A DNA stretch of 64,000 nucleotides, from NCBI GenBank assembly GCA_023251805.1, contig JAHEYB010000001.1:104384-168383 (forward strand), in the 5' to 3' direction. Shown here one piece after another: positions 30,370 to 33,040 of this stretch (position 1 is the first letter of the stretch; each line of letters opens with the position of its first letter). The notes under the pieces were generated by a model. The model was not told where the DNA came from and made no database searches. It worked only from the letters and a program-made list of their open reading frames with translations. This stretch comes from Bacteroidota bacterium (lineage in GTDB: Bacteria > Bacteroidota > Bacteroidia > 2-12-FULL-35-15). Both the position numbers and the translations under genes were made by a program.

Positions 30370-31173
30370 ATGAAAAAAATATTGTTTACCGCTTTTAGTT
30401 TGATTGTTTCATCTTCAGTTTTTGCTGTAGGAGTAATAGTGTTGGAAGGAAACTACCAAGGAAAAAATCTTTATATTCAAAATCCATTTGCAGGATCAGG
30501 AGTTGGTTTTTGTGTACAGGAAGTTAGAGTGAACGGAAATGTTACAACAGACGAGATTGCATCAAGTGCTTTCGAAATTGATTTTAGAAACTTACAATTG
30601 AAGATTGGTGATAAAGTGGAAGTAAAAATTACTCACAAAGATGATTGCAAGCCCAAAGTGCTAAATCCTGAGGTTTTAAAGCCAAAAAGTACATTTGAAA
30701 TTGTTTCTATGGCAGTGGGTACGGATTTAACCTTCAAATGGTCTACAAAAGGTGAAACAGGAAAGTTAGCGTACGTTATTGAGCAGTTCCGTTGGAACAA
30801 ATGGGTGAAAGTAGGAGAAGTAGAAGGAAATGGTACACCAGATGTAAACAACTACTCTTTCTTAGTAGCACCGCATTCCGGTAAAAACCAATATCGTGTT
30901 AAGCAAGTAGATTATACGGGTCAACCTAAATTATCCAGAACTGTTGATTACAACTCAACATCCCCGGAAATTACATTCAGTCCTGCTAAAGTATCCAAAG
31001 AAATAGGCTTTTTCGCTGGAAGCACTCCAACCGAAACGATGTTTGAAATATATGACCAATTTGGTAATATTGTAAAACGAGGTTTCGCGTCAACTGTAGA
31101 TGCATCTAATTTGCCCAAAGGCGCATATTATTTGAACTACGACAATAAAATGGGCGAGTTTATCAAAAAATAA
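30370..31173 (+). CDS. Secreted protein, unknown function
   Basis: 267-aa ORF with a signal peptide. The beta-rich C-terminal ..LPKGAYYLNYDNKMGEFIKK resembles a T9SS sorting domain. Confidence 0.6.
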   Translation: MKKILFTAFSLIVSSSVFAVGVIVLEGNYQGKNLYIQNPFAGSGVGFCVQEVRVNGNVTTDEIASSAFEIDFRNLQLKIGDKVEVKITHKDDCKPKVLNPEVLKPKSTFEIVSMAVGTDLTFKWSTKGETGKLAYVIEQFRWNKWVKVGEVEGNGTPDVNNYSFLVAPHSGKNQYRVKQVDYTGQPKLSRTVDYNSTSPEITFSPAKVSKEIGFFAGSTPTETMFEIYDQFGNIVKRGFASTVDASNLPKGAYYLNYDNKMGEFIKK

Positions 31174-31175
31174 TT

Positions 31176-31197
31176 CTTCGACTCCGCTCGAAATGAC
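31176..31197. repeat. Dispersed repeat copy (reverse orientation)
   Basis: cttcgactccgctcgaaatgac lies 3 nt after the stop and before the terminator. Confidence 0.7.
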
Positions 31198-31206
31198 ATA
31201 ATTGAA

Positions 31207-31241
31207 AATAATCCCGGTATTTATATCGGGATTATTTTTTT
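31207..31241 (+). terminator. Intrinsic terminator
   Basis: aataatcccg / cgggattatt 10-bp stem followed by a T-run. Confidence 0.8.
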
Positions 31242-31262
31242 ATATTAACTAAACTATTGATA

Positions 31263-31685
31263 ATGTTAAAGATAGAGCATATTGGTATCGCAGTAAAGGA
31301 TATCTCAGCTTCCAACGACTTGTTCAGCAAGCTATTTGGAAAAGTACCCTATAAGCTTGAAAGAGTAGAATCGGAAGGTGTTTCTACCTCCTTTTTTATG
31401 ATAGGCGACAGCAAAATAGAGCTTTTAGAAGCAACTAGCCCTGATAGTCCGATTGCCAAGTTTATTGAGAAAAAAGGCGAAGGCATTCATCACATTGCTT
31501 TTGAAGTAGCCGATATTGATGCTGAAATGAAACGTTTACAAGCAGAAGGATTTACCTTATTGTCGGATATTCCCAAAAAAGGTGCTGACAATAAACGCAT
31601 TTGTTTCTTGCATCCAAAGGGTACAAATGGTGTATTAATAGAGCTTTGTCAATCTGTTAGGACTCCTTCTGAGGAGATGAAATAA
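31263..31685 (+). CDS. mce: Methylmalonyl-CoA epimerase (glyoxalase/VOC fold)
   Basis: ATG 31263: MLKIEHIGIAVKDI... followed by ..GEGIHHIAFEVADID.. and ..ICFLHPKGTNGVLIEL.. Confidence 0.85.
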   Translation: MLKIEHIGIAVKDISASNDLFSKLFGKVPYKLERVESEGVSTSFFMIGDSKIELLEATSPDSPIAKFIEKKGEGIHHIAFEVADIDAEMKRLQAEGFTLLSDIPKKGADNKRICFLHPKGTNGVLIELCQSVRTPSEEMK

Positions 31686-31687
31686 AA

Positions 31688-31713
31688 AAATCCTCCCAAA
31701 TTTAAGGAGGATT
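31688..31713. terminator. Bidirectional hairpin terminator (strong on minus strand)
   Basis: aaatcctcc / ggaggattt stem. On the minus strand it is followed by seven T. Closes the tRNA/GIY-YIG transcription unit. Confidence 0.75.
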
Positions 31714-31779
31714 TGGTGGGCCCACTTGGAATCGAACCAAGCACCCACAGCCCCGATAGCCATAGGGGGAGTCTGTTGC
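31714..31779 (-). pseudogene. 3' two-thirds copy of the tRNA(CAT) gene, anticodon loop replaced by an 18-nt imperfect palindrome
   Basis: Minus strand: gcaacagactc-cccctatggctatcgggg-ctgtgggtgcttggttcgattccaagtgggcccacca. Outside the 18-nt insert it is identical to the intact tRNA at 32111..32187. Confidence 0.85.
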
Positions 31780-31786
31780 ATAGTAT

Positions 31787-32071
31787 TTATAGTTCTTTCA
31801 ATTTTACAATTAATTCAGGATGAAGAGTTAAGTTTTTAATATAAGGTTTACTCTTCATTTTTTTAATATGTTTTTCAATTTTTATAGCTTGAGTAAAAGA
31901 CGAGCATTCTATATTTAAAAACAATTGCCAATCATCTGCTTTTGCTGTAAAACGATGCTGGCCATATGAGTGATTGTTATGCTTAATTAGGCGTGAATCT
32001 AGGTCCTCGTGGCAAACTCCAATATAAAACCGATTAAGCTTTTGGCTATGTATTATGTAACAAGAATTCAT
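31787..32071 (-). CDS. GIY-YIG nuclease family protein (catalytic-domain-only, 94 aa)
   Basis: ATG 32071: MNSCYIIHSQKLNRFYIGVCHEDLDSRLIKHNN..., giving GIY-like CYI, then YIG, a conserved Arg, and later IEKHIKKMKSK (Glu). The longer track ORF to 32137 reads through the tRNA gene and is not credible. Confidence 0.8.
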   Translation of the reverse strand: MNSCYIIHSQKLNRFYIGVCHEDLDSRLIKHNNHSYGQHRFTAKADDWQLFLNIECSSFTQAIKIEKHIKKMKSKPYIKNLTLHPELIVKLKEL

Positions 32072-32110
32072 TTTATAAAGAACCCCGAAGTTATTACTCC
32101 GGGGTTGACT

Positions 32111-32187
32111 TGGTGGGCCCACTTGGAATCGAACCAAGCACCCACAGATTATGAGTCTGTTGCTCTAACCGAATGAGCTATAGGCCC
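32111..32187 (-). tRNA. tRNA, anticodon CAT (elongator Met or Ile2/lysidine), CCA encoded
   Basis: gggccta-ta-gctc-attcggtta-gagc-a-acaga-ctCATaa-tctgt-gggtg-cttgg-ttcgatt-ccaag-tgggccc-a-cca folds as a canonical 77-nt cloverleaf. It lacks the three G:C pairs of initiator tRNA anticodon stems. C4:G69 and C5:G68 fit E. coli TilS determinants, but this is not decisive. Confidence 0.9.
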
Positions 32188-32213
32188 AAGTCACTATTTT
32201 TACTTTATCTTTA

Positions 32214-32275
32214 CACCCACAGTCCCGATAGCTATCGGGAGAGTCTGTTGCTCTAACCGAATGAGCTATAGGCCC
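32214..32275 (-). pseudogene. 5' two-thirds copy of the tRNA(CAT) gene, anticodon loop replaced by a perfect 18-nt palindrome
   Basis: Minus strand: gggcctatagctcattcggttagagcaacagactc-tcccgatagctatcggga-ctgtgggtg, after which homology ends. The T arm and 3' acceptor strand are missing. Confidence 0.85.
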
Positions 32276-32352
32276 TTTTGTATTGCTACAAAATTAGGAA
32301 TGCGAAATTAGATATTTACAACGAATTAACAAAACTCTACTCCCTTTATATT

Positions 32353-32985
32353 GTGGATATTTCAGAAAAACAAATAAAGAATATCATTTTTGATTTAGGG
32401 GGCGTCATTCTCAATATCGATTATAATTTATTGGTAAAATCTTTTTCTGAAATTGGATTACCACATTTTGAAGATTTTTTTTCTCAAAAAAAGCAAAAAA
32501 TTTTCTTTGATGAATACGAAAAAGGAAATATTAGCTCCAGCGAGTTTAGAAAAAAATTAAAAAAACAGTGTATTCCAAATACTTCTGATGAAGCAATAGA
32601 TAGCGCATGGAATGCAATGCTGCTTGACCTTCCCAAAGAACGATTGGATTTTCTGATGTTTGTTAAGAGCCGTTATAGGACTTTTCTTTTGAGTAATACG
32701 AATGAAATTCACATAAATTGTATTTATAATTATTTAAAAAAGAACTTTCAGAAAAATGATTTTTCTTCTTGTTTTGAGAAAGTCTACCTCTCGTATGAAA
32801 TAGGAATGAGAAAGCCGGATGCTGAAATATTTGAAAAAGTAATTAATGAAAATGGTTTGAATAAAATAGAAACATTGTTTATTGATGATTCAAGTCAACA
32901 TATTGAAAGTGCAAGAAATTTTGGGATTCAAACCTATTTGCTAGATGTAAAAAAGGAAAGTATCCAACATGTTTTTAAAACATAA
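32353..32985 (+). CDS. HAD-superfamily hydrolase
   Basis: The ORF opens at 32278, abutting the tRNA fragment. In-frame GTG 32353 gives (M)DISEKQIKNIIFDLGGVIL with HAD motif I (DxG). ..LLSNTN.. is motif II and ..FIDDS.. is motif IV. Start uncertain. Confidence 0.75.
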   Translation: MDISEKQIKNIIFDLGGVILNIDYNLLVKSFSEIGLPHFEDFFSQKKQKIFFDEYEKGNISSSEFRKKLKKQCIPNTSDEAIDSAWNAMLLDLPKERLDFLMFVKSRYRTFLLSNTNEIHINCIYNYLKKNFQKNDFSSCFEKVYLSYEIGMRKPDAEIFEKVINENGLNKIETLFIDDSSQHIESARNFGIQTYLLDVKKESIQHVFKT

Positions 32986-33040
32986 TCCCACATTTCGCTT
33001 TCAATTTTAAAATGATTATTTTTGTATAAATAAAAACAAA

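Follow-up and report, generated by a model that had tools for sequence, protein, structure and literature searches.

Why do an intact tRNA gene and the gene of a very small nuclease lie between two partial copies of that same tRNA? The question is raised by positions 31688–32277 of a 64,000-nt stretch of DNA from a Bacteroidota bacterium (contig JAHEYB010000001.1, assembly GCA_023251805.1), which as a whole is called the window here. Read on the minus strand, this block consists of a 5′ partial tRNA copy, a spacer, an intact tRNA(CAT), a hairpin, the gene of a 94-aa GIY-YIG protein, a 3′ partial tRNA copy and a terminator (Table 1). The original prediction, made from the letters alone, had listed these elements; when the minus strand was re-read, all of them were found at the coordinates claimed, and ARAGORN, Rfam and Pfam agreed. 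Our answer, to which we assign a probability of roughly 55%, is that the block is one copy of a widespread Bacteroidota cassette of the homing type that targets tRNA genes and restores the tRNA that its insertion splits. Other loci compared with the window are designated L001 and so on.

The partial copies had been described as base-for-base identical to the intact gene outside their anticodon region, and this was confirmed: the identical tracts measure 35 nt and 9 nt in the 5′ copy and 11 nt and 37 nt (including CCA) in the 3′ copy. In both copies the two tracts are separated by an 18-bp palindrome (called PAL here), which is perfect on the left and reads CCCCTATGGCTATCGGGG on the right; in the near-identical strain L001 the right PAL reads CCCCGATGGCTATCGGGG. 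Folded as a single strand, the left PAL gives a 7-bp stem with an AGCU loop (−9.1 kcal/mol). The 38-nt direct repeat that had been claimed to bracket the intact tRNA and the nuclease gene was also recovered: the partial copies overlap over 38 nt with 89% identity, and with their starts 472 nt apart they enclose a segment of 434 bp. In 64 kb, exact repeats as long as 35 and 37 nt lie far above chance expectation. The window contains one tRNA (by ARAGORN), one GIY-YIG open reading frame (ORF) and two PAL matches, both of them at the locus, where 0.02 would be expected. The intact tRNA(CAT) is of the elongator type, with a G1–C72 pair and an anticodon stem lacking three consecutive G–C pairs. Upstream, the motif TAATTTTG, which we take to be a match to the Bacteroidetes −7 promoter consensus and thus a candidate promoter, lies in a block that is conserved in the alignment with L217, L211 and L215.

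Table 1. Coordinates of the features of the block in the window, in minus-strand order.
Feature	Position	Strand	Basis or remark
Presumed promoter of the original tRNA gene, TAATTTTG	32289..32296	-	fits the Bacteroidetes -7 consensus TAnnTTTG
5′ partial tRNA copy: tRNA positions 1-35, PAL, positions 41-49	32214..32275	-	comparison with the intact gene
Left PAL TCCCGATAGCTATCGGGA, perfect 18-mer in place of ATAAT of the anticodon loop	32223..32240	no strand	
Leader spacer, 26 nt	32188..32213	-	akin to the L215 spacer and to longer cassette spacers with GTTCTTTAAA
Intact 77-nt tRNA, anticodon CAT, encoded CCA	32111..32187	-	ARAGORN; Rfam tRNA, 67.6 bits
Trailer hairpin between tRNA and nuclease gene	32081..32106	-	homologous to terminator-like trailers of other cassettes
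94-aa GIY-YIG nuclease gene, catalytic domain only, UPF0213/Slx1 branch	31787..32071	-	
3′ partial tRNA copy: positions 25-35, PAL, positions 41-77 including CCA	31714..31779	-	
Right PAL CCCCTATGGCTATCGGGG, slightly decayed copy	31751..31768	no strand	
Intrinsic terminator at the site of the original tRNA terminator	31688..31714	-	

Relatives with the same site were reached through homologues of the HAD-hydrolase neighbour of the block (67–71% identity). They share a neighbourhood of SBP_bac_5, a 267-aa gene, glyoxalase, tRNA, HAD, OMP, PAP2 and sigma-54 genes. At this site L211, L217, L218, L219 and L214 have a single uninterrupted tRNA(CAT) followed by a terminator, and neither a GIY-YIG gene nor a PAL was found there. 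L211 aligns as a clean, plain tRNA site. L217 retains a decayed trace of a 5′ module, GGTTAATACAACCCAACTCTCCG, between the promoter and the tRNA (L217:2385-2425, minus strand), which resembles tRNA positions 18–35 plus the first PAL bases; some of the empty sites are therefore secondary losses. L215 has the 5′ piece with PAL, a related spacer and the intact tRNA, without the nuclease gene or the 3′ piece. The full form is present in the window and in L001. With the same neighbours throughout, this amounts to a presence/absence polymorphism at one conserved site.

Aligned with the plain tRNA gene of the relatives, the 5′ piece of the window begins, and its 3′ piece ends, exactly where that gene does. 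Because same-neighbour relatives carry the plain gene, the ends coincide and the promoter region is conserved, a normal tRNA gene has here received an insertion, as had been proposed. The block sits within a former single tRNA(CAT) gene, of which host positions 1–35 and 41–77 survive in the two outer partial copies. What was hit was an ordinary tRNA gene and not the "palindrome allele" that the original prediction had in mind; PAL is a phylum-wide 18-bp repeat found at the cassette boundary. We infer that the intermediate states can be derived from the full form through recombination between the repeats.

Homologues of 93–100 aa are numerous in Bacteroidota, and a profile search (E-values up to 1e-10) returned 894 clusters at 50% identity. 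We surveyed the surroundings of 58 non-redundant GIY-YIG genes with full context, drawn from an unbiased metagenome set, and used 149 other ORFs in the same loci as a control. A tRNA gene on the same strand, no more than 400 nt upstream, was present at 38 of the 58 GIY-YIG genes versus 1 of the 149 control ORFs; these tRNAs were Met, Asn, Leu, Arg or Pro. The start of a PAL fell within 50 nt after the ORF in 47/58 and 1/149 cases, respectively. Overall, PAL was located downstream of the GIY-YIG gene in 49/58 and on both sides in 23/58. The canonical order is a tRNA, a terminator-like trailer hairpin, the GIY-YIG gene, 10–23 nt of the adjacent tRNA, PAL, and the remainder of that tRNA to its 3′ end. 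The expectation that GIY-YIG paralogues would be linked to tRNA genes and flanked by partial copies of the adjacent tRNA was thus borne out. Among all 95 genes with at least 250 nt of upstream sequence (not de-duplicated), the tRNA types were Asn-GTT (27), Met-CAT (24), Leu-TAA (7), Arg-CCT (3) and Pro-CGG (1), and in a neighbour-joining tree the GIY-YIG proteins group by tRNA type with few switches.

The commonest form of the cassette is tRNA–GIY-YIG gene–3′ piece. Pieces of the 5′ type with PAL and no GIY-YIG gene occur in L215, L014, L047, L094 and L100, so that the two partial copies do not form a unit, as had been assumed; each of them acts as a module that can occur apart from the other. 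The position of PAL differs among lineages (anticodon loop, D-loop, variable loop, T-loop or acceptor strand), and where one fragment has multiple PALs these split its homology with the working tRNA into short tracts. Tandem GIY-YIG copies occur, as do tandem tRNA duplicates (L142, L143, L148, L168) and arrays of ORF-less units, each made up of a 3′ piece with PAL, a terminator and the last ~19 nt of the GIY-YIG ORF. Arrays of four to seven units of ~95–115 nt lie upstream of an intact GIY-YIG gene in L141:1-660, L136:1850-2480 and L160:1-400; the L160 units consist of a similar fragment plus a terminator. The layout looks like an undescribed family of selfish DNA cassettes that recurs across Bacteroidota. 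The literature searched contained no description of tRNA-linked small GIY-YIG genes in Bacteroidota, and the original remark that no such cassette was known to its author is in keeping with this.

The 94-aa protein matches the Pfam GIY-YIG domain PF01541 with an E-value of 4.7e-11 (43.3 bits versus a cut-off of 22.6). Across 36 homologues, the catalytic residues Y16, G18, H31, E66 and N80 never vary, and at least 90% of the sequences retain Y5 and R27. The ratio of nonsynonymous to synonymous substitution rates (dN/dS) is 0.04–0.07, which indicates purifying selection on the nuclease. The AlphaFold2 model has a mean confidence score (pLDDT) of 94.4 and adopts the GIY-YIG fold, with a three-stranded sheet flanked by helices. 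With its catalytic residues kept, a low dN/dS and a confident model, the nuclease is predicted to be functional. PF01541 is the sole domain, and the model is one compact domain with C-terminal helices; there is no separate DNA-binding domain. The best fold matches in Foldseek were 1zg2, then Slx1 (6sei/6seh) and I-TevI (1ln0), with a probability of 0.99 and a root-mean-square deviation of 2.9 Å to Slx1. Profile comparison with the Protein Data Bank gave E-values of 3.9e-5 for 1zg2, 0.007 for 1ywl, 0.07 for SLX1 and 0.74 for I-TevI. Among solved structures, those of the UPF0213 proteins BH0048 and EF2693 and of Slx1 stand closest, and I-TevI comes after them. From the profile and fold rankings we therefore regard the nuclease as a minimal, catalytic-domain-only enzyme of the structure-specific branch.

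A known defence system or curated family was considered and rejected: no NCBIfam model matches the GIY-YIG family, and PADLOC returned only a marginal match (DitB, E-value 4.4e-4). A type III toxin–antitoxin system of the ToxIN kind was likewise discarded, since PADLOC gave no ToxN-type match for the nuclease; the order of repeat, terminator and gene is loosely similar. Public records give several family members of 93–97 aa (P0037 and P0083 from Flavobacterium, for instance) the name "excinuclease ABC subunit C", a mis-annotation that arises because the GIY-YIG domain is shared.

The consensus of PAL is T/C-CCCGATAGCTATCGGG-A/G. When one genome per species was scanned with the query CCCGATARYTATCGGG, at least 120 stretches were obtained, and among the matches listed all record titles were of Bacteroidota (Flavobacteriales, Chitinophagales, Sphingobacteriales, Cytophagales, Bacteroidales and Saprospiraceae). 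We read this as strong enrichment of PAL in the phylum, short of proof that it is exclusive to it. In 111 of 137 sampled copies T and A flank the core, which makes the element an 18-mer. Only 28 of the 137 copies lie inside ORFs of at least 100 aa, versus 1882 of 2400 random positions, so PAL is mostly intergenic. Often it occupies the loop of a bigger hairpin, tRNA loops among them. A tRNA lies within 1 kb of 15 of the 137 copies, and the GIY-YIG family is the sole recurrent non-housekeeping gene family within that distance.

The variants of PAL are symmetric. In loci chosen by the protein, pair 1–18 is TA in 85 and CG in 70 copies, pair 2–17 is CG in 134, TA in 21 and GC in 7, and pair 7–12 is TA in 149 and AT in 22; these double changes keep the palindrome perfect. 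Mismatches show no strand bias (about 15 sense-wobble versus 16 antisense-wobble cells). At homologous positions PAL is unchanged despite saturated synonymous sites. Taken together, conservation at saturated synonymous divergence, symmetric variants and the lack of strand bias lead us to conclude that PAL is constrained or actively renewed, most likely as DNA. Where it is inserted, PAL substitutes for 3–6 nt and leaves no target duplication.

Several identities for PAL were tried and rejected. It is not the Bacteroidetes SOS box, the published motifs of which (CTAA-N5-TTAG and GGA-N5-TCC) differ. It is not a terminator-type element; with intergenic length taken into account, it shows only a slight excess between convergent genes and deficit between divergent ones. 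A tRNA intron does not fit, since PAL takes the place of the anticodon and none would remain. Selection at the level of RNA was set aside on the equal frequency of sense and antisense wobble mismatches, and co-evolution of protein and site, with one PAL variant per GIY-YIG clade, on the scatter of variants over the GIY-YIG tree. The PAL sequence was not found in the literature searched.

Some PAL copies sit in full-length tRNA-like genes or in tRNA pseudo-copies. In L136 (~2150-2240) and L081 (5638-5722), full-length tRNA-Asn-like and tRNA-Lys-like genes carry PAL at the variable-loop position, and ARAGORN still calls them (88 and 85 nt). In L114:500-700, three PAL-bearing tRNA-Ala pseudo-copies lie just 3′ of a tRNA-Ile(GAT)/tRNA-Ala(TGC) pair, and this 2-kb contig has no GIY-YIG gene. 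At the T-loop position, the 3′ pieces of L003 (3331-3344) and L004 (401-414) have a different palindrome, TCCGCCTAGG(T/C)GGA, which occurs twice more in another repeat in the Flavobacterium metagenome-assembled genome L079 (6966, 7147). This hints at more than one palindrome family. The T-loop variant is compatible with G·U pairing.

If the block is a homing-type cassette, its cycle may be pictured as follows. The nuclease would break a tRNA gene, or PAL inside a tRNA copy, and the break would be repaired by copying from a locus that carries the cassette. The highly conserved tRNA halves (~35 nt) could act as homology arms, either in homing or in a segmental amplification analogous to that of SegB. 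The complete tRNA of the cassette, or the part of a tRNA that it carries, would restore function and keep the cell viable. Since the PALs interrupt the direct repeats, only short homology would be left for deletion of the cassette or conversion of the working tRNA; the PALs are probably also cis sites for a Slx1-like enzyme. Recombination between the repeats would then yield the other states, namely 5′ piece plus tRNA, tRNA–GIY-YIG gene–3′ piece, plain tRNA and tandem arrays. We count the tandem GIY-YIG copies and the ORF-less arrays in favour of homing, because they match a nuclease-driven, recombination-dependent segmental amplification of the SegB type.

Signs of mobility come from near-identical cassettes in unrelated flanks: L177 and L180 are 91% identical over 432 nt, L157 and L171 94.7% over 432 nt, and L175 and L195 95.6% over 459 nt; L178 against L190–L194 is a further case, and identities over all these cassettes span 91–96%. 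The ectopic Asn-type cassettes of L180 and L171 (each at ~2400-2480) start in non-tRNA DNA at tRNA-Asn position 31, where the junction reads …at followed by GACTGTTAATCAGAGGGTCC, and no decayed GIY-YIG gene was found upstream of either. The shared start points either to a discrete left end or to breakage within the anticodon stem. The idea that the cassette brings its own replacement tRNA stands as far as rescue of the tRNA goes; what arrives may be a whole tRNA or just the part from which one is rebuilt, the ectopic copies beginning at position 31. The spacer motif GTTCTTTAAA was present at 5 of 20 tRNAs with PAL upstream versus 0 of 76 without, and its carriers include a tRNA-Met of another sequence type (L009) as well as the Arg-CCT tRNA of L073. 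The trailer hairpins are homologous among Met-type cassettes. Because GTTCTTTAAA and the trailer homology span loci, leader and trailer are parts of the cassette rather than of the locus that received it. The cassette is patchily distributed, and the protein trees disagree: window and L003 share 74% in the GIY-YIG protein and 46% in HAD, whereas L003 and L008 share 66% and 74%. One possible second insertion site was left unused. In L002 the cassette is 99.5% identical from the tRNA onward, the upstream 134 nt are unrelated and tRNA positions 6 and 15–17 differ; L002 is a 1.1-kb metagenome contig and possibly chimeric.

A number of observations weigh against a homing-type cassette. The DNA-binding domain that gives classical homing enzymes their specificity is absent from the 94-aa protein, and its nearest relatives are the structure-specific UPF0213 and Slx1 proteins, not Seg or I-TevI. 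Self-cleavage is unexplained, because the presumed target does not differ in sequence from the working tRNA of the cassette. About 97% of PAL copies are not adjacent to a GIY-YIG gene (4 of 137 have one within 1 kb), and PAL-bearing partial copies of tRNA-Ser, Val, Arg, Asn and Ala stand beside the intact gene with no GIY-YIG gene in reach. Between the window and its nearest cassette relatives the synonymous sites are saturated, and therefore no recent transfer into the lineage of the window is seen; the recency implied by the original prediction gives way here, as the architecture is shared with cassettes at this distance. An ancient insertion with later loss could account for part of the pattern. 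tblastn found no match in INPHARED (phages) or PLSDB (plasmids) and one weak match in IMG/VR, and there is no known transfer vehicle for the cassette. Finally, metagenome contigs such as L002 can be chimeric. The saturated synonymous sites, the lack of phage and plasmid copies and the single weak viral match speak for a long association with gain, loss and rearrangement.

The most serious competitor turns the relation of the parts around. PAL itself would be the unit that moves or is maintained, as in the REP/RAYT systems, with the GIY-YIG protein as its cognate enzyme, kept close to PAL copies, and the tRNA fragments as collateral landing places, being dispensable duplicates rich in hairpins. 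We consider this unlikely, though much of the behaviour of PAL described above suits it: the phylum-wide and mostly intergenic occurrence, the symmetric double changes, the preference for hairpin loops, the constancy at saturated synonymous sites, and the position just 3′ of most GIY-YIG genes and on both sides of many. The scatter of variants over the GIY-YIG tree looks as if each genome had its own version, GIY-YIG is the only recurrent non-housekeeping family near PAL, and the closest structural relatives of the nuclease cut branched or hairpin DNA. On the other hand, no PAL occurs elsewhere in the 64-kb window, the placement of the gene directly behind a tRNA in two thirds of cases and the rebuilding of the tRNA are left unexplained, no mechanism is known by which a GIY-YIG enzyme copies an 18-bp palindrome, and PAL replaces 3–6 nt with no target duplication.

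A broader form of this idea, which we hold only tentatively and think more probably wrong than right, is that PAL and the 94-aa protein make up a new repeat-plus-nuclease system parallel to REP/RAYT. The enzyme would recognise PAL in cruciform or hairpin form and either maintain it or spread it, and the tRNA genes would serve as self-restoring homes. In both systems a short, hairpin-forming repeat flanks a nuclease gene, and its variants differ between genomes. In the sampled Bacteroidota genomes PAL is also extragenic and multi-copy; the window has just the two copies at the locus. They differ in the enzyme, which is GIY-YIG here and a HUH/Y1 (IS200-like) transposase in RAYT, and in anchoring and copy number, the family described here being tied to tRNA genes and often in tandem versus single-copy. 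PAL, moreover, is perfectly palindromic over its 18 bp and lacks the GTAG or CGTC terminal tag (PMC3733652).

Next in line, and already quite improbable in our estimate, is a device that acts as RNA. PAL-capped tRNA fragments would be decoys or processing signals, as in type III toxin–antitoxin systems, or stabilisers of the 3′ untranslated region, for a nuclease that acts on tRNA. The layout of promoter, repeated tRNA-like units, terminator-like hairpin, nuclease gene and a further unit would suit such a device; PAL takes the place of loops that anticodon nucleases and similar enzymes cut, and the variant palindrome at the T-loop position tolerates G·U pairs. To our knowledge, however, GIY-YIG enzymes are DNases in every characterised case. 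PAL mismatches are without strand bias, and apart from PAL the fragments fold no better than shuffled sequence (z = −1.3 and 0.0). The sole match in a defence library is the marginal one to DitB, and empty sites, ectopic copies and tandem arrays are events at the level of DNA. A prokaryotic protein of the Slx1 branch fused to a TrmH-type tRNA methyltransferase, which would favour a role on tRNA, has been noted (PMC1564403).

A decayed tandem tRNA array, in which the partial copies are duplication debris and the nuclease gene is a bystander, is very improbable. Tandem tRNA duplicates and PAL-bearing fragments without a GIY-YIG gene do exist, but the family-wide survey largely refutes this explanation: the same ordered architecture recurs at five tRNA types, versus 1 of 149 control ORFs, and throughout the phylum one and the same 18-mer marks the junctions. 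The fragments, moreover, match the working gene base for base instead of being decayed, and purifying selection on the nuclease gene is strong. Hardly any credence is due to the remnant of an integrase-mediated island with the partial copies as attL and attR, although such islands classically show the 3′ part of the tRNA repeated directly where the inserted DNA ends: the block neither contains nor adjoins a recombinase gene, being flanked by HAD and glyoxalase genes as the empty sites are, the insert is merely 434 bp with size and content constant in dozens of loci, and a 5′ partial copy is also present. With tRNA-targeting integrative elements the block does share insertion in a tRNA gene, a functional tRNA that is kept and a displaced partial copy at the far end; it differs from them in its small insert, the lack of an integrase, the partial copies on both sides and the interruption of the repeats by PAL.

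Among described systems, the UPF0213 (BH0048, EF2693; YhbQ type) and Slx1 proteins are closest to the 94-aa nuclease by profile and fold, and their bacterial members are equally minimal, whereas identity to the window protein is only ~20%. We know of no report that links UPF0213 or Slx1 proteins to tRNA genes, flanking palindromes or presence/absence behaviour. SegB, known from phages T4 and T6, had been named as the nearest described analogue, and the SegB literature supports this. According to a study on T6, SegB cuts inside tRNA genes with RAWTSGAAC as preferred motif, and it drives recombination-dependent tandem amplification of the tRNA–segB segment, including truncated segB copies (PMC13096335). 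It also reports that this amplification needs the nuclease activity of SegB as well as phage uvsX and uvsY, and that SegB carries a C-terminal part which can be truncated (PMC13096335). A free-standing GIY-YIG gene among or behind tRNA genes is common to both systems, and the tandem GIY-YIG copies and ORF-less units resemble SegB amplification as described there. SegB is a phage protein with a C-terminal part, whereas the window protein is chromosomal, has 94 aa and a catalytic domain only, and belongs to the UPF0213/Slx1 branch. The window family is absent from the phage collections searched, and PAL-capped partial tRNA copies and a tRNA-restoring insertion are not described for SegB in the sections consulted. 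The locus would work like a free-standing homing cassette and departs from Seg and I-TevI in the lack of a DNA-binding domain, the branch of the protein and the absence of phage copies. The analogy with SegB drawn in the original prediction holds, with the protein placed outside the Seg/I-TevI branch.

Palindromic elements, such as the Rickettsia palindromic elements and the GC clusters and double-hairpin elements of mitochondria, enter RNA genes and hairpin loops. The Rickettsia palindromic elements are mentioned in PMC3733652. The likeness lies in short palindromic DNA within RNA genes and in the loops of existing hairpins. PAL is much shorter, is found here only in dispensable tRNA copies and is linked to a specific nuclease gene.

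Homing-type mobility is known from phages and organelles. If the block is indeed a homing-type cassette, such mobility would extend to bacterial chromosomes, in an element that splits an essential tRNA gene yet carries the means of rebuilding it. The nearly invariant tRNA would supply the homology arms and let the element cross between distantly related hosts. A huge family of tiny GIY-YIG proteins, now without function in annotation or misnamed, would gain a role and a testable substrate. As for the phylum-wide palindromic 18-mer with its compensatory variation, it may correspond in Bacteroidota to the REP elements and offer a minimal nuclease a natural recognition site. In practical terms, partial and PAL-bearing tRNA copies can mislead tRNA annotation, as some are called as genes by ARAGORN, and can break assemblies.

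Other signals in and around the block are minor. That the tRNA halves might be separated by a group I intron, or by some other RNA already known, was considered and rejected; the Rfam scan of 31000–33000 (E-values up to 1) gave only tRNA and sub-threshold noise, with no match to Intron_gpI or another ribozyme. Opposite the tRNA, at 32113-32187 on the plus strand, it gave a sub-threshold match to Plastid-ycf2 5′UTR (44 bits versus a gathering score of 65.7), which is an artefact of tRNA-like sequence. Outside the block, the terminator hairpin that follows the 267-aa ORF (31207-31236, AATAATCCCGGTATTTATATCGGGATTATT) gave weak sub-threshold Rfam matches (STnc430, greA leader). Its TCCCG/CGGGA arms are like those of PAL, which is probably a coincidence.

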